A stretch of DNA of 14,040 nucleotides from a virus (lineage: Duplodnaviria; Heunggongvirae; Uroviricota; Caudoviricetes): the IMG/VR virus record IMGVR_UViG_2681813230_000003. One strand, given 5' to 3'. Positions 1,932 through 14,040 of this stretch are shown piece after piece. The position numbers were made by a program, and so were the translations under genes. The notes under the pieces were generated by a model. The model did no database searches and was not told the origin of the DNA. It saw only the letters and a list, made by a program, of their open reading frames with translations. Numbering within the stretch: the first letter of the stretch is position 1; each line of letters opens with the position of its first letter.

Positions 1932-4425
1932 TCTGGTCGTTAACCTTGACGTTAACTCGTCGAAATTCAGCGAGCAGCTTAACTACGTCAAAAAAGAATT
2001 AAAACAGACCGGCAATGCGGCAAACGACGAAGCGTTACGTATCCAGCAGTCCTTCAGCCGACAGGAGAACGCCGCGCGTAAGGCCGGTATTTCAGTGGGT
2101 CAGTATAACGCCGCAATGCGTATGCTCCCGGCGCAGTTTACCGATGTGGCCACGCAGCTGGCAGGTGGGCAGAACCCCTGGCTGATTCTGCTTCAGCAGG
2201 GTGGTCAGGTTAAGGACTCCTTTGGCGGGATCATCCCGACATTCCGGGCGCTGATTGGGACGGTTTCCCCGTTGATGGTCGGCATTGGTGCATTGTCCGT
2301 TGCAACGGGCGCGTTGTTCTATGCCTGGTACCAGGGCTCTTCCACCCTGTCTGATTTCAACAAAACGCTGGTACTGTCGGGGAACACAGCCGGACTGACC
2401 GCTGACCGCATGCTGGCACTGGCGCGTAACGGACAGACAGCGGGGCTGACCTTCAACCAGACCAGTGAAGCGCTGACCGAACTTATCAACGCGGGTGTGC
2501 GTGCTGGCTCGCGCTTTGATGACATGAGCCAGGCGGTGGCGCGGTTTACCGATGCCTCCGGCGTGCCGGTGGAAAAGGTCGCAGCAGCCTATGGCAAGCT
2601 CGCAACTGACCCGACATCGGGCCTGATCGCGATGGCCCAGCAGTTCCATAACGTTACTGCTGAACAGATTGCCCATGTGGCGCAGCTGCAGCGTGCCGGT
2701 GATGAGGCTGGCGCACTGCAGGCGGCTAACGAGGCTGCTACAGCCGGATTCAACGATCAGACCAAAGCCATCCGCGACAATATGGGGACGATTGAATCTT
2801 CAGCGGACTCCCTGAGGCGCGCCTTCAAGTCGATGTGGGATGCAGCCCTCGATATTGGCCGACCTGACACCGCGCAGGAGATGGTGGCAAAAGCCGAAGC
2901 CGCGTTCAAAAAAGCCGATGAAATCTGGAACCTGCGTAAAGGTGACCGATATGTCAATGATGAGGCCCGCGCCCGATTCTGGAATGATCGCGAAACGGCC
3001 AGGCTGGCGCTGGACATGGCTCAGCAGCAGGCGGGAATTGCCAGGGCGAATGAAGAGAATGCTTCGCGCGAAGCGGCTGCGGAATCGGATCGCCAGAAGT
3101 ATGCTGCGCAGGCTCAGGCAAACTATGCCAAAACGCAGACGGCACTGGAGAAATACACGGCCAGGCAGAGCGAGCTCAACAAGGCGCTGAAAGAGGGGCG
3201 AATCCTCCAGGCTGACTACAACATCAACCTGGCTGCCGCGAAAAAAGAGTACGAAGACACCCTTAAAAAGCCGAAGAAGACCCCGGCAATCAGAACCCCC
3301 GCAGGTGCCCGTGCAACCGATACGGCCAGCGCCCAGACGCTGGAGCTGCAGGCACAGTTGCGCACCCTGCAGGAGCATAAGGGGATAAATGACACCATCA
3401 GTCAGCAGCGTCAGGAGCTGTGGCGTCAACAGTCCCGGTTTACAGTTCTGGAAGAGGCCGCGAAGACCCGGACGCTTTCTGCTGAGGAAAAATCCCTGCT
3501 GGCCAGTAAAAGCGAGGTGCTTTCCCGTGCAGAGCTGAACGCGAAGCTTGGCGATCAGATAGTGGCGCAGGAGCGGCTTAACCGCCTGCAGGATACGTCC
3601 CAAAAATACGTCACGCAGATCGGCGAGAAAACCAGGGCCCTGGCGGAAAGTGCTGGTATGAGCAGTCGTGCAGCACAACGCCGCAACGAGGAGGCCCAGC
3701 TTCTTCAGGGGTGGAAAAATGGTGGCGGTTCGGAGAACGACGCTGGTTATCAGAATGAGTTGCAGGCGCTGCAGGCGTATTACGCCGAGCAGGATAAGCT
3801 GCGGGACGACTGGCAATCCGGGGCCAAATCCGCATGGGCAGATTATGTTGATTCTGCTTCAGATGCTTATGGCCAGATGAAGTCGGCTGCTACCAGTACG
3901 TTTGATGGAATCGGGCAAAATATGGCTGACATGCTGACGCGCGGTAAGGCTGACTGGGCTGACTTCACCCGCTCCACGCTCTCCATGCTGACACAGATCC
4001 TGCTGAAACAGGCGATGGTAGGCTTAGTGGATTCAGCATCAACCGCGCTGGGATTTGCAGGTGGCGGTTATACCGGTTCAGGCGGGAAATATGAGCCAGC
4101 AGGTGTCGTTCACCGTGGTGAGTTTGTTTTCACCAAAGAGGCTACCAGCCGGATCGGCGTCGGCAATCTTTACCGGATGATGAAAGGCTATGCAACGGGA
4201 GGGTATGTCGGGGGCGGTGGTACAGGCCCGGCTGCAGCACCTTTCGGTGTCAGTGTATATGCCCCGGTGACGGTCGAGAATGCTTCCGGTAACGCACAGC
4301 AGCAAAACGACGGAGACAGGCTGGGTAAGGCGTATCAGCAGGTGATTAACAAATCTGTCAACGAGGGTATCGCCAGGGCAATCCAGCCCGGTGGGCTTAT
4401 CTGGAATGCGACCAATCGCAGGTAA
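1909..4425 (+). CDS. H: Tail tape measure protein (lambda gpH-like)
   Basis: 838-aa ORF with long blocks near-identical to remembered lambda gpH (GISVGQY.AAMRMLPAQFTDVATQLAGGQ.PWLILLQQGGQVKDSFGG; GGKYEPAG.VHRGEFVFTKEATSRIGVGNLYR.M.GYATGGYVG). It overlaps the end of T; AGGAGG lies 9 nt upstream. Confidence 0.92.
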   Translation: MAQTAVGDLVVNLDVNSSKFSEQLNYVKKELKQTGNAANDEALRIQQSFSRQENAARKAGISVGQYNAAMRMLPAQFTDVATQLAGGQNPWLILLQQGGQVKDSFGGIIPTFRALIGTVSPLMVGIGALSVATGALFYAWYQGSSTLSDFNKTLVLSGNTAGLTADRMLALARNGQTAGLTFNQTSEALTELINAGVRAGSRFDDMSQAVARFTDASGVPVEKVAAAYGKLATDPTSGLIAMAQQFHNVTAEQIAHVAQLQRAGDEAGALQAANEAATAGFNDQTKAIRDNMGTIESSADSLRRAFKSMWDAALDIGRPDTAQEMVAKAEAAFKKADEIWNLRKGDRYVNDEARARFWNDRETARLALDMAQQQAGIARANEENASREAAAESDRQKYAAQAQANYAKTQTALEKYTARQSELNKALKEGRILQADYNINLAAAKKEYEDTLKKPKKTPAIRTPAGARATDTASAQTLELQAQLRTLQEHKGINDTISQQRQELWRQQSRFTVLEEAAKTRTLSAEEKSLLASKSEVLSRAELNAKLGDQIVAQERLNRLQDTSQKYVTQIGEKTRALAESAGMSSRAAQRRNEEAQLLQGWKNGGGSENDAGYQNELQALQAYYAEQDKLRDDWQSGAKSAWADYVDSASDAYGQMKSAATSTFDGIGQNMADMLTRGKADWADFTRSTLSMLTQILLKQAMVGLVDSASTALGFAGGGYTGSGGKYEPAGVVHRGEFVFTKEATSRIGVGNLYRMMKGYATGGYVGGGGTGPAAAPFGVSVYAPVTVENASGNAQQQNDGDRLGKAYQQVINKSVNEGIARAIQPGGLIWNATNRR

Positions 4426-4430
4426 CAGTT

Positions 4431-4778
4431 ATGACGATAGAAACATTCCCCTGGGGCATTAAGGTTTCCAGCCAGCCCACCGAGGGAAGCAAAGACACAG
4501 TCAGGAAGGTCCAGTTCGGCGACGGGTACGCACAGGTGAGCGGCTCCGGCCTGAATGATGAGATTCGCACCTATGAATATTCTTTTTCAGGGGATCCAAC
4601 TACAGCGAATGAAATTCACGCTTTCCTTCGGCGGCATAAAGTGAAGTCGTTTATTTTCACTCCGCCTTTCGGCGATACCGCGCTGTGGCGTGTCGAGGCT
4701 GACACGCTCAAAAAGGTGGTTAAAAACGTAAAAGTGATAACCGTAACCGCAACGTTTGAACAGGCATTTGCACCATGA
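4431..4778 (+). CDS. M: Minor tail protein M (lambda gpM-like)
   Basis: 115-aa ORF immediately after H with a VRKV.FGDGY motif, as in lambda gpM. Position is conserved between H and L. Confidence 0.82.
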   Translation: MTIETFPWGIKVSSQPTEGSKDTVRKVQFGDGYAQVSGSGLNDEIRTYEYSFSGDPTTANEIHAFLRRHKVKSFIFTPPFGDTALWRVEADTLKKVVKNVKVITVTATFEQAFAP

Positions 4779-11460: not shown

Positions 11461-12321
11461 ATGTCTGCAGGAACTATCACCCTGACAAACGGGTCCGCTG
11501 TTGTTGGCGGTGCCGGAACCTCATTCGCAACCGAACTCGCCGGAGGTGATTTCATTGTTTCGGCTGTGGGCGGTGTGCCCTACACGCTGCCGGTGAAAAC
11601 GGTCGACAGTAATACCCAGGTGACGCTGGTCAGCAACTTTACCGGGCCAACGCAATCCGGCGCTGCCTGGTCAGCCATCCCCCGCGTTGCTCTGAACATG
11701 GTCACTGCCGCGCTTGTGGCGCAAAGTGCTGAAGCCCTGCGTGGACTGAATTACGACAAACAGAACTGGCAGCAGGTTTACAGCGCCGCCGGAAACATCA
11801 CAGTGAAGTTGCCAGACGGCACCACCTTCACCGGCCCATCATGGAAATATCTGTCTGACAATATGGCAACCAAGAGCGGTGGGGCCGTACCTGTTAACCA
11901 GGGAGGGACCGGGGCGACAACCAGAGACGCCGCGCTGTCCAATCTGGGTATCACCTATGTCAGGTCAGGAACAAACTCCAGCGTGATAAAAATTGACGAT
12001 ATTTATCAAATGGATTTCCTCATAGGTGGCGGCATCGCAGTAGGAGCATACAACCCTCAGACAGTGGGAGGTATTACGTATTACACGCACTACTATAAAG
12101 TGCCGCTCCCCGTCGCATTACCTAACGGCATTATTATTGCCGTTGCGTCCATTTCAGGCGACAGATTTGGAAATCAAAACCCCGGATACAATGCAGACGT
12201 AAAAACATGCAGAGATAAAGATGATGGCACCGGGCTATCAACAACATATCTAACCGTCAGCGTTAAAACAGCTCAGACAGGCTGGGTCCCGTATTTTCAT
12301 GTAAGAGTGGTAGGGTATTGA
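11461..12321 (+). CDS. stf: Side tail fibre protein (Stf-like) with mosaic C-terminal receptor-binding region
   Basis: 286-aa ORF with AAGGAG 5 nt upstream. It contains a ...NQGGTGATTRDAALSNLGI motif of the kind I recall as conserved in phage tail fibres, and is followed directly by a Tfa-family chaperone gene. GC content drops sharply after about 12000. Confidence 0.65.
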   Translation: MSAGTITLTNGSAVVGGAGTSFATELAGGDFIVSAVGGVPYTLPVKTVDSNTQVTLVSNFTGPTQSGAAWSAIPRVALNMVTAALVAQSAEALRGLNYDKQNWQQVYSAAGNITVKLPDGTTFTGPSWKYLSDNMATKSGGAVPVNQGGTGATTRDAALSNLGITYVRSGTNSSVIKIDDIYQMDFLIGGGIAVGAYNPQTVGGITYYTHYYKVPLPVALPNGIIIAVASISGDRFGNQNPGYNADVKTCRDKDDGTGLSTTYLTVSVKTAQTGWVPYFHVRVVGY

Positions 12322-12322
12322 T

Positions 12323-12736
12323 ATGAAATATTTTTACAGCATCAGCACGCAGGGATTTTACCTCGATAACGGTATGCTGTCTGCGTATGAAGCGGCTGGC
12401 TCACTACCTGCGGACTTGCAAGAGATGAGCGAGGCTGACTATCTGGCGTTTTTTAATCCTCCCGATGGATTCGCGGGCATATTTGACGAGAAAGGACCGC
12501 GTATTGAACAACTGCCAGAACTGGACCCGCTGGCGATAGCAGAAAATCAACGGCGGCTGTTGCTGTCAGAAATCGCTCCGACTATTTCTGTATGGCAGAC
12601 AAAAATCCTGGTGGGCATGAAACTGAGTGATTCAGAAACCGCAGCCCTGCATGCCTGGTTGAGCTACAGTGATGCGCTGAACGCGCTGGATATCACCGTG
12701 CCAGATATTCAGTGGCCTGAAAAACCCGCAGCGTGA
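12323..12736 (+). CDS. tfa: Tail fibre assembly chaperone (Tfa family; lambda Tfa / Mu U-like)
   Basis: 137-aa ORF starting 2 nt after the stf stop. The C-terminus (LHAWLSYSDALNALDITVPDIQWPEKP) matches the conserved Tfa C-terminal signature (...W..Y...L..VD.S.APDIEWP..P in lambda Tfa). Confidence 0.8.
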   Translation: MKYFYSISTQGFYLDNGMLSAYEAAGSLPADLQEMSEADYLAFFNPPDGFAGIFDEKGPRIEQLPELDPLAIAENQRRLLLSEIAPTISVWQTKILVGMKLSDSETAALHAWLSYSDALNALDITVPDIQWPEKPAA

Positions 12737-12750
12737 TGTGATTTTCATTA

Positions 12751-12778
12751 ACCGGGCAGAAAAGGATGACTGCCCGGT
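12751..12778. terminator. Possible bidirectional terminator hairpin between convergent tfa and dinI-like genes
   Basis: ACCGGGCAG / CTGCCCGGT is a perfect 9-bp inverted repeat with a 10-nt loop, lying between the two convergent stop codons. No clean T-run follows on either strand. Confidence 0.3.
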
Positions 12779-12793
12779 GATGTGAATATGTAA

Positions 12794-13033
12794 TTAATCA
12801 GCAACCAGCCACATGTCAGATTCTTCAAACATCTCTTCAAGCATACGATTAAGCCGTTCTTTCTCTGTTTTCGTGCAGTTGCTGTTTAGCGCGTTCGCCT
12901 GCATCGGCTTTACCTTCACTTCGGCACCAGGGAAAATCTGGTGCACCCGCTTCGTCAGTTCGGCCAGAATGATCTCCCTGGCCCCTTCGAGCCCCTCAAC
13001 ATTTCGCTTGTCATAAACCAGTTCAACAAACAT
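12794..13033 (-). CDS. dinI: DinI-family protein (DNA-damage-inducible protein I-like)
   Basis: 79-aa product MFVELVYDKRNVEGLEGAREIILAELTKRVHQIFPG...EKERLNRMLEEMFEESDMWLVAD aligns over its full length with remembered E. coli DinI (81 aa; ...LSRRIQYAFPD...KEDKQRISEILQETWESADDWFVSE). SD AAGAGGA lies upstream. The longer ORF-track ORF (to 13420) is an antisense run-on. Confidence 0.85.
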   Translation of the reverse strand: MFVELVYDKRNVEGLEGAREIILAELTKRVHQIFPGAEVKVKPMQANALNSNCTKTEKERLNRMLEEMFEESDMWLVAD

Positions 13034-13082
13034 ACCGATCCTCTTATAAGTGAAAACTGCCTGTGCTTGATCTGTTTTCATA

Positions 13083-13111
13083 AAAATACTACTGTATATA
13101 CATACAGTCAA
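13083..13111 (-). promoter_or_regulatory. Sigma70-type promoter for the dinI-like gene (-35 TTGACT, 17-bp spacer, -10 TATTTT on the minus strand)
   Basis: The minus strand reads TTGACT (13111-13106), a 17-nt spacer, then TATTTT (13088-13083). The LexA box lies within the spacer and overlaps the -35, the classic SOS-promoter geometry. Confidence 0.55.
13092..13107. promoter_or_regulatory. LexA operator (SOS box)
   Basis: CTGTATATACATACAG differs at one position from the CTGT-(AT)4-ACAG consensus and has flanking TA...TCA. It sits in the 99-bp divergent region between the dinI-like gene and orf99. Confidence 0.8.
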
Positions 13112-13132
13112 TGAGCGAGTGAGGGTGCATTT

Positions 13133-13432
13133 ATGCCTCGTCAACCGGATATTCGTGCTGCTTTTATTGCGGCCATACAGCAAAACCCGAAGGGCTATCT
13201 CTGTCTGCATACAGACAAGTTCATCGCTGAACTGCAGGAGAGGAACTGGCATTTCAGTCAGGCGGATGCAAATACATGGATCGAGCGATACCAGCCGGAC
13301 TTCGCCGATAAGACGACAAACGAAAGCGAGAACCGGTACTGGATCCTGCGTAACATGGGGAGGGTTCTGAGGAGTTATCTTGCGATGCGCTATAGGTTTG
13401 CCCCATCCCTCCCAAACCAACCTTTTTTATAA
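13133..13432 (+). CDS. Hypothetical protein (99 aa), divergent from the dinI-like gene; possibly SOS-regulated
   Basis: ORF with SD GAGGG 8 nt upstream of the ATG and a start about 25 bp downstream of the LexA box. Composition looks protein-like; the C-terminus is basic/aromatic (YWILRNMGRVLRSYLAMRYRF). No homologue recognised from memory. Confidence 0.5.
   Translation: MPRQPDIRAAFIAAIQQNPKGYLCLHTDKFIAELQERNWHFSQADANTWIERYQPDFADKTTNESENRYWILRNMGRVLRSYLAMRYRFAPSLPNQPFL
13407..13432. other. Candidate hix/gix-like recombination (crossover) site upstream of the invertase gene
   Basis: CCCTCCCAAACCAACCTTTTTTATAA matches hixL (TTCTTGAAAACCAAGGTTTTTGATAA, from memory) at 16/26 positions, including the AAACC core, the central AA, the T-run and the terminal ATAA. 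It lies 60 bp upstream of the invertase start. The left half-site is poor and no partner was found in the window. Confidence 0.3.
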
Positions 13433-13460
13433 CCATCAAAAATCTGGTGATGCTTCGCCG

Positions 13461-13487
13461 TTTCTCCTGTTTTCATAACAGGAGAAA
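13461..13487 (+). promoter_or_regulatory. Perfect 11-bp inverted repeat (stem-loop) that includes the invertase Shine-Dalgarno
   Basis: TTTCTCCTGTT (13461-13471), loop TTCAT, AACAGGAGAAA (13477-13487). The right arm contains AGGAG (13480-13484), 7 nt upstream of the invertase ATG at 13492. Confidence 0.45.
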
Positions 13488-13491
13488 TCCC

Positions 13492-14040
13492 ATGATTTAC
13501 GGTTATGCCCGAGTATCAACAAACCACCAGGACACTGAATTGCAACTAACGGCGCTCAAGTCAGCGGGTTGTGAGAAAATTTTTGAAGAGCATGCCAGCG
13601 GGAGGAAATCGAATCGGCCGGTTCTAAAACGGCTGATCGCCACTATGCAGCCGGGGGATGAACTGGTGGTCTGGAAGCTGGACAGGATAGGCCGCAACGT
13701 TCTGCATGCGCTGTTGATGTTCCAGCAGTTACAGGAAAAGGGTATCAACTTCCGCAGTATTACCGATGGCGTGGATCTCAAAACAGCCAGCGGCCGCTAT
13801 AACTTTCGTAACATCCTTTCCGCAGCACAATATGAATCTGATCTTAATAGCGAACGTACCTTAGCAGGGCTGGCCGTAGCCAGGGCAAAAGGGCGAGTTG
13901 GTGGTCGCAGGCCTAAGTTCACGGATGAGCAATGGCGGGAAATGGGGGAGCGGATGGCAACCGGTGAATCACGACAAAGCGTATCAAAAACGTATGGAGT
14001 AGGGCTCTCAACTCTGTATAAAAAGTTTCCAGCTAGCTGA
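13492..14040 (+). CDS. Serine-recombinase DNA invertase (Hin/Gin/Pin/Cin family)
   Basis: 182-aa product MIYGYARVSTNHQDTELQ...GDELVVWKLDRIGRN...GINFRSITD...ERTLAGLAVARAKGRVGGRRPK...GVGLSTLYKKFPAS is highly similar across its whole length to remembered Gin/Hin, including the catalytic Ser in the RVST motif and the C-terminal HTH. Start chosen at the ATG with an AGGAG SD; the ORF-track start at 13447 lacks one. The stop is the last codon of the window. Confidence 0.92.
   Translation: MIYGYARVSTNHQDTELQLTALKSAGCEKIFEEHASGRKSNRPVLKRLIATMQPGDELVVWKLDRIGRNVLHALLMFQQLQEKGINFRSITDGVDLKTASGRYNFRNILSAAQYESDLNSERTLAGLAVARAKGRVGGRRPKFTDEQWREMGERMATGESRQSVSKTYGVGLSTLYKKFPAS

Follow-up and report, generated by a model that had tools for sequence, protein, structure and literature searches.

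An intact DNA invertase beside a single crossover site: a probable orphan remnant of a tail-fibre switch in a phi80/HK225-type lambdoid prophage

The stretch of viral DNA analysed here (hereafter the window; 14,040 nt, IMG/VR record IMGVR_UViG_2681813230_000003) forms the right-hand arm of a lambdoid prophage of the phi80/HK225 type, with yciI as its integration site. The final 1.3 kb of the window share 99.9% identity with phage HK225 and 100% identity with the prophages of E. coli ECCRA-119 and YZMc10-2, and the ECCRA-119 prophage is 98.7% identical over the window. From the tail-fibre genes rightwards, the window contains stf, tfa, a dinI-family gene, orf99, a crossover site and a DNA invertase gene (Table 1). 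Both stf and tfa are present in single copy, as the first-pass annotation, which had been made from the sequence alone, reported for the tfa-stf cassette. The Stf protein is a fibre resembling N15 gp25 in which the LGLGE junction motif is missing, and it gave no Pfam match. Its counterpart in ECCRA-119 (L006 13722-14105) is flagged by PGAP as a pseudogene without its C-terminus. No meaningful inverted repeat was found in the window; one 13-nt pair with an 85% match (I19, 11901-11913 and 13401-13413) was taken as chance.

Table 1. Features of the right end of the window (positions count from the first letter of the window)
Feature	Position	Strand	Size	Basis
stf	11461-12321		286 aa	
tfa	12323-12736			
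dinI-family gene	12794-13033	-		translation; annotated DinI in HK225 and E. coli
LexA box CTGTATATACATACAG, perfect, between the divergent dinI and orf99	13092-13107	.		read directly
orf99, member of a 79-aa family with an aberrant tail	13133-13432	+		homologues, PGAP
Stretch travelling with the left half-site, most of the aberrant tail of orf99	13367-13408	+	42 nt	end of homology, identity with Kp4865-2 and IMG/VR contigs
gix/cix/pix-class crossover site, invertase-proximal	13407-13432	+	26 bp	relatives, register, shuffles, matrix
Stem-loop burying the invertase Shine-Dalgarno sequence	13460-13488	+	12-bp stem	RNA fold, two-sided change, phi80 annotation
Pin/Gin/Cin-family serine DNA invertase, intact	13492-14040	+	182 aa	Pfam, Gin structures, relatives

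The invertase reading frame runs from an ATG at 13492 to a stop codon at 14038-14040, the final base of the window. Its description in the first-pass annotation as full length, with the catalytic serine and the helix-turn-helix intact, was borne out. The protein carries the Pfam domains Resolvase (E 3.6e-39) and HTH_7 (E 1.5e-09), its residues 1-181 align end to end with the Mu Gin structures 3uj3 and 4m6f (E 1e-56), and the YxRVST catalytic serine motif is present within the Gin alignment. With its catalytic domain (Ser9/10) at the N-terminus and its helix-turn-helix domain at the C-terminus, the protein is a small serine recombinase; it shares an amino acid identity of 55% with e14 PinE, 52% with P7 Cin and 51% with Mu Gin. 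The gene is the same as phi80 pinL. The mEp237 copy differs from that of the window by one synonymous codon and the HK225 copy by T157I, while phi80 pinL (L002 7084-7602) differs by 18 synonymous codons, no missense codon and one nonsense codon, S173*. The nonsense codon cuts off the recognition helix (STLYKKFPAS), and the invertase of the laboratory phage is therefore probably inactive; the interrupted reading frame suggests that a phage can do without the gene. The orphan copies were considered as evidence of purifying selection, and this was rejected. The upstream and site variants also occur in the intact switches of SKA5 and AR_0119, so the codon counts show no selection after segment loss, and the divergence may predate that loss.

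The Fis enhancer comparison gave 46 of 68 positions identical to the annotated P7 cin enhancer, no better than the adjacent coding sequence (22/34). By a crude rule, one Fis-like 15-mer lies at nt 22-36 of the invertase gene, where Mu and e14 also have one, and the same rule gave no second Fis site in any gene compared. Mosaic invertases were observed in SZQ1 (L008 4084-4638) and Omnitron (L018 4501-), in which the first 148 residues are those of the window's enzyme and the C-terminal DNA-binding domains differ, a pattern that suggests domain swapping within the gene. Several E. coli genomes retain only the final ~270-310 bp of the invertase gene (window ~13735-14040, 99-100% identity); these fragments, annotated as helix-turn-helix proteins, are presumably prophage remnants.

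The 26-bp sequence upstream of the invertase reads CCCTCCCAAACCAACCTTTTTTATAA, that is, two 12-bp half-sites around a 2-bp core, CCCTCCCAAACC AA CCTTTTTTATAA (left half 13407-13418, central AA 13419-13420, right half 13421-13432). A hix/gix-like site overlapping the end of orf99 had been noted here before, and the present analysis confirms it: the sequence spans the last codons and the stop of orf99 and lies 59 nt before the ATG of the adjoining invertase gene, a spacing found in every relative compared. The site centre is 72 bp away from the ATG in the window, compared with 67 bp in Mu and e14. The sequence is 24/26 identical to TTCTCCCAAACCAACCTTTTTTATAA, the proximal site of the intact switches in AR_0119 and WEM25 (L003, L004), and it is in register with Mu gix (TTCCTGTAAACC GA GGTTTTGGATAA), with the P7 cix sites and with e14 pix (TTCTCCCAAACC AA CGTTTATGAAAA). 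The proximal site of the relatives matches the window with 2 mismatches, and none of 200 dinucleotide shuffles is matched at <=3 mismatches. In an independent position matrix, trained only on Mu, P7, e14 and P2-like sites, the window site scored 20.1 bits and the next best window position 7.0, while 100 shuffles gave a maximum of 16.5 bits and a median of 9.5. By these sequence measures, 13407-13432 is a genuine gix/cix/pix-class site.

On its left, the site is overlapped by an unusual form of orf99. The last codon of the 79-aa form is replaced by a 21-residue tail, LRSYLAMRYRFAPSLPNQPFL (residues 79-99), which runs through the 42-nt stretch and then across the whole site to a TAA at 13430-13432. 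Homology to ordinary 79-aa members stops at 13366, and nearly all of the 120 orf99 homologues among the matches listed are 79 aa long and cover ~80% of the query. Two diverged orf99 alleles (61-62% identical) carry an identical tail, and PGAP marks the E. coli copy of orf99 as incomplete at the C-terminus. The junction between orf99 and the site is rare, being present in three of 5,426 complete E. coli genomes. Searches for the source of the 42-nt tail returned only the three genomes with the same junction in E. coli and only HK225 and Kp4865-2 in the phage collection, and an exact scan of the GTDB representative genomes gave 0 matches. The dinI gene and orf99 together occupy the place that the invertible fibre segment holds in intact relatives. 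Between them, a minus-strand promoter-like site (13111-13083) overlaps the LexA box, and the phi80 record shows annotated LexA sites at the corresponding position. In Flotzy and in the SZQ1 prophage, a umuD-like gene follows the orf99-family gene.

Between the crossover site and the invertase, positions 13460-13471 pair with 13477-13488 to form a stem-loop that contains the Shine-Dalgarno sequence AGGAG (13480-13484). The predicted fold has -24.9 kcal/mol and a z of -4.5, and none of 200 shuffles folds as well. The second-outermost pair of the stem is changed from T-A to C-G on both sides in phi80, mEp237 and SKA5, and the phi80 record annotates the stem-loop as IR3. As a hairpin over the ribosome-binding site, it would act as a translational brake, and translation of the invertase is probably kept low. 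A consensus scan passed no plus-strand promoter for the invertase or for orf99, and Rfam gave no match in 12700-14040. Given the LexA box by orf99 and the lack of a strong terminator before the invertase, SOS-driven read-through is conceivable, and expression of the invertase could rise with the SOS response.

What lies beyond the window can be read from its near-identical relatives. In HK225, the attP core starts 120 nt past the invertase stop and is followed by int and xis. In the ECCRA-119 lysogen, the host gene yciI starts 118 nt past the stop and is followed by tonB, yciABC, ompW and the trp operon. The same invertase gene recurs in some 130 other E. coli genomes, which become homologous to the window at 13409, the left edge of the site; the ORF overlapping the site is a tail-fibre gene in the majority of these. 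Two of them examined in detail, AR_0119 and WEM25, contain myovirus prophages at yciI whose invertase gene is 0 nt different from that of the window. Their gene order is the constant part of the fibre gene, the distal site, Sv, tfa, tfa', Sv', the proximal site, the invertase and attR, with the distal site inverted and inside the fibre gene. The lambdoid phages phi80, mEp237, HK225 and mEpX1 all use the phi80 attP and each carry an invertase directly before it. Among these, the siphovirus mEpX1 (L016) seems to keep a complete switch, with inverted GA-core sites at ~2911 on the minus strand in stf (TTTGTCTAAACC GA GGTTTGTGCGAG) and at ~4410 on the plus strand before the invertase (ACTTCCCAAACC GA CATTTTATAGAT), and with a fibre-like ORF (VGLGSSAIRDVG...) on the minus strand. 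Its invertase is chimeric with a Gin-like N-terminus, and both mEpX1 records show the same orientation.

The presence of a partner site was judged in relatives with 96.7-98.8% identity over the parts shared with the window, and four sequences were scanned: the window, HK225 in its entirety (45 kb), the full ECCRA-119 prophage and 15 kb of flanking host DNA. The first-pass annotation had found no second site upstream, the stf junction included, and this was confirmed: the best other match in the window has 9/26 mismatches, equal to that of shuffles, and the stf position equivalent to the Mu/P1 junction (SNLGI, ~11932) has 13-14 mismatches to a site. Across the four scanned sequences, the best other match has 8-9/26 mismatches, as in shuffles, and with position matrices the best other score is 5-12 bits, where shuffles reach 9-17 bits. 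As a control, the matrix recovered two inverted sites of at least 28 bits each in seven of seven intact systems, namely AR_0119, WEM25, the P2-like prophage of ECCRA-119, SKA5, e14, and Kp4865-2 and the IMG/VR contig L024, the last two being the two orientations of one type. Only a single site was found in the window, HK225, the ECCRA-119 prophage with its 15 kb flank, 20KM2222, phi80 and SZQ1. A second, inverted site bounding an invertible segment on the same replicon was thus not found, nor were sites on both sides of the invertase as in a Hin-type layout. No pair of E. coli genomes with a PinL-type segment in both orientations was found among those searched; the best partial matches in that search came from P2-like prophages that combine the same cassettes with other invertases.

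The sequences on the two sides of the site have different relatives. The 42-nt stretch and the left half-site are 100% identical in Klebsiella phage Kp4865-2 and in the IMG/VR contigs L022, L024 and L025. In L022, L025 and Kp4865-2, the last a P2-like phage, what follows them is a right half of the e14 type, CGTTTATGAAAA (in L022, CGTTTATGAGAA), together with a PinE-like invertase. Identity between the window and Kp4865-2 is 100% up to and including ...CCCAAACCAAC, after which the two are unrelated, and the break falls exactly at the central AA. Conversely, AR_0119 and the P2-like prophage of ECCRA-119 carry the same Sv' cassette left of the site with different right halves and invertases. L024 (IMGVR_UViG_2877544404_000004) is of the Kp4865-2 type with its 1.6-kb site-to-site segment inverted at 99.5% identity (blastn blocks against Kp4865-2: 3-1989 plus, 1978-3574 minus at 99.5%, 3551-4709 plus), which indicates that the CC variant of the left half-site, the variant of the window, takes part in inversion there. 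The simplest reading is that the DNA rightwards from the site centre forms an invertase-attP-int module and the DNA leftwards an orf99 tail unit, and that crossover at the site centre has reshuffled left cassettes and right invertase modules, the window site probably being one such hybrid.

Two further observations were made on these fibre cassettes. The same cassettes (98-99.7%) occur in the yciI myovirus prophages (L003, L004) and in P2-like prophages (L011, L012, L013) that have different invertases, and the ends of homology between the two groups fall within crossover sites. In Kp4865-2 (L021) and L024, the segment contains the Sv end of the fibre gene H, an IS1 transposase remnant and a 3' orf99 fragment and has no alternative fibre end. 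Both orientations of it exist among sequenced genomes, and one of them would fuse the constant part of H to nonsense sequence, making an on/off switch of the fibre.

Taken together, the locus is very probably an orphan invertase with the one proximal site of a Mu/P1/e14-type fibre switch whose segment and distal site have been lost, the site itself being a recombinant joint. Since a second inverted site is lacking, it is regarded as an orphan remnant and not as a member of the Gin/Cin/Pin systems. The layout would be a decapitated form of the Mu/P1/e14 layout, as in phi80 pinL; in the window, dinI and a truncated orf79-family gene have come to abut the site where intact relatives have the fibre segment. 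A single site in cis leaves nothing to be inverted; the locus is therefore not a switch, and no inversion would be expected at it. The earlier suggestion that the site might be a relic is essentially right, given the loss of the segment and the distal site, with the qualification that the site itself is not decayed and is a hybrid whose left half is recombination-proficient elsewhere.

Several other explanations were weighed against this one. That the 26-bp match is a chance resemblance and no recombination site at all can practically be dismissed; the shortness of the sequence is all that speaks for it, while the match is not reproduced in any of the 200 shuffles, the independent matrix score exceeds all 100 of its shuffles, intact systems have their proximal sites at the homologous position, and the left half-site participates in the inversion observed in L024. 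Hardly more credible is a Hin-style switch, in which the invertase would lie inside the invertible segment and the partner downstream of 14040. It had been put forward in the first-pass annotation together with the proposal to look further downstream for an inverted copy, and the window without an upstream partner is the sole point in its favour. The attP core in HK225 and yciI in the lysogen begin only 120 and 118 nt downstream, respectively, no copy above chance was found in the 15 kb host flank or in the int-xis-early region, and the invertase is outside the segment in every intact relative examined. The close downstream attP and yciI and the lack of any site above chance refute the Hin-style layout for the sequenced relatives, just as the absence of a site at the equivalent position of stf and of any match above chance in the scans refutes a Mu-style partner in stf.

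A cryptic, highly degenerate quasi-site elsewhere in the prophage, permitting rare inversion or deletion in cis, is quite improbable but not as remote as the Hin-style layout. Cin uses quasi-sites at low frequency, and the stf of mEp237 (L009 ~2000, minus strand) contains a site-like sequence of 16 bits. However, scores other than that of the site itself reach 5-12 bits at best in the window, HK225 and the ECCRA-119 prophage, which is within the shuffle range. The candidate in mEp237 has GA at its core where the proximal site has AA, a mismatch with which the pair should not recombine productively, and the stf of the window has no counterpart of the candidate. It is more conceivable, albeit still unlikely, that the site is retained as an operator, with no role in recombination, at which bound invertase keeps its own weak promoter repressed or stops read-through coming from orf99. 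The constant 59-nt spacing from site to ATG in every relative and the conservation of the intervening region along with the invertase are in line with this explanation, which is compatible with the orphan-remnant reading and does not exclude it. On the other hand, the consensus scan passed no plus-strand promoter between the site and the ATG, and inheritance from a Mu-type layout simply explains the position of the site.

As an orphan remnant, the locus retains an intact invertase without a segment of its own, like PinQ, and its ORF is identical to copies in intact switches. The invertases Gin, Cin, Pin and Hin are interchangeable. The invertase of the window, if expressed, would act only in trans, and the invertible fibre segments of co-resident P2-like or e14-like prophages are its possible targets. 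ECCRA-119, for example, also harbours a P2-like prophage that has a fibre segment with AA-core sites and its own invertase; in this genome, ~460 kb separate the sites of the two prophages. In addition, PinQ of the cryptic prophage Qin inverts the e14 P segment, which is bounded by the repeats CCTTCTCCCAAACCAA (PMC12529663), and these repeats share their core with the window site. The proposed action in trans is drawn from the interchangeability of the family, the PinQ precedent and the P2-like prophage of ECCRA-119. More rarely, the invertase might join its lone site to such foreign sites. In that case the lone site would be a live port, at which the invertase occasionally recombines with co-resident P2- or e14-like sites and moves flanking DNA between unrelated phages. 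This idea is tentative and rather unlikely to be correct, although somewhat less so than an operator role; its footprint would be the orf99 tail and left half-site inside the actively inverting segment of a Klebsiella P2-like phage, with the homology break at the central AA.

The locus is accordingly best viewed as a textbook system in degenerate form, with no hidden switch beyond the window. It offers a clean example of crossover sites serving as joints for reassorting fibre cassettes, invertase modules and even unrelated genes between sipho-, myo- and P2-like phages. Following the report on PinQ (PMC12529663), orphan prophage invertases of this kind are candidates for control in trans of the fibre segments of other prophages.

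In comparison with known systems, the arrangement is already known, being the same as that of phi80 pinL and present in the annotated GenBank records of HK225 and phi80. The invertases of phi80, mEp237 and HK225 are the same gene with 0-1 amino-acid differences, except for the phi80 nonsense codon, and in all three phages, as in the window, the invertase lies right before attP-int with one proximal site and no invertible segment. The HK225 junction is identical to that of the window, and both have the orf99 tail left of the site, whereas phi80 and mEp237 have an Sv' fibre fragment there and the right half-site CCTTTCAAATAT.

The locus functions like, and descends from, the Gin/Cin/Pin systems. 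The invertase is 51-55% identical over its full length to Mu Gin, P1/P7 Cin and e14 Pin, and Mu gix, P1/P7 cix and e14 pix are 26-bp sites in the same register with the AAACC core of the window site; the central dinucleotide is AA in the window, cix and pix and GA in Mu gix. In Mu, P1/P7 and e14, as in the window, the site centre lies 67-72 bp before the invertase start and the invertase is outside the segment. Unlike these systems, the window has no distal site and no Sv/Sv' or tfa/tfa' pairs, and therefore no inversion, and the phage that hosts it is a siphovirus with an N15 gp25-like fibre, unlike the Mu, P1 and e14 comparators. Salmonella Hin belongs to the same recombinase family and shares the site architecture, in line with the sequence comparison to Gin. 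In the Hin system, two hix sites flank a promoter-bearing segment that includes hin itself; in contrast, the window has no site downstream of its invertase and no room for one. Closer in setting are PinQ of Qin and PinR of Rac, which are lambdoid-prophage invertases like that of the window. The trans action of PinQ on the e14 P segment is experimental (PMC12529663), whereas that of the window's enzyme is one that we infer.
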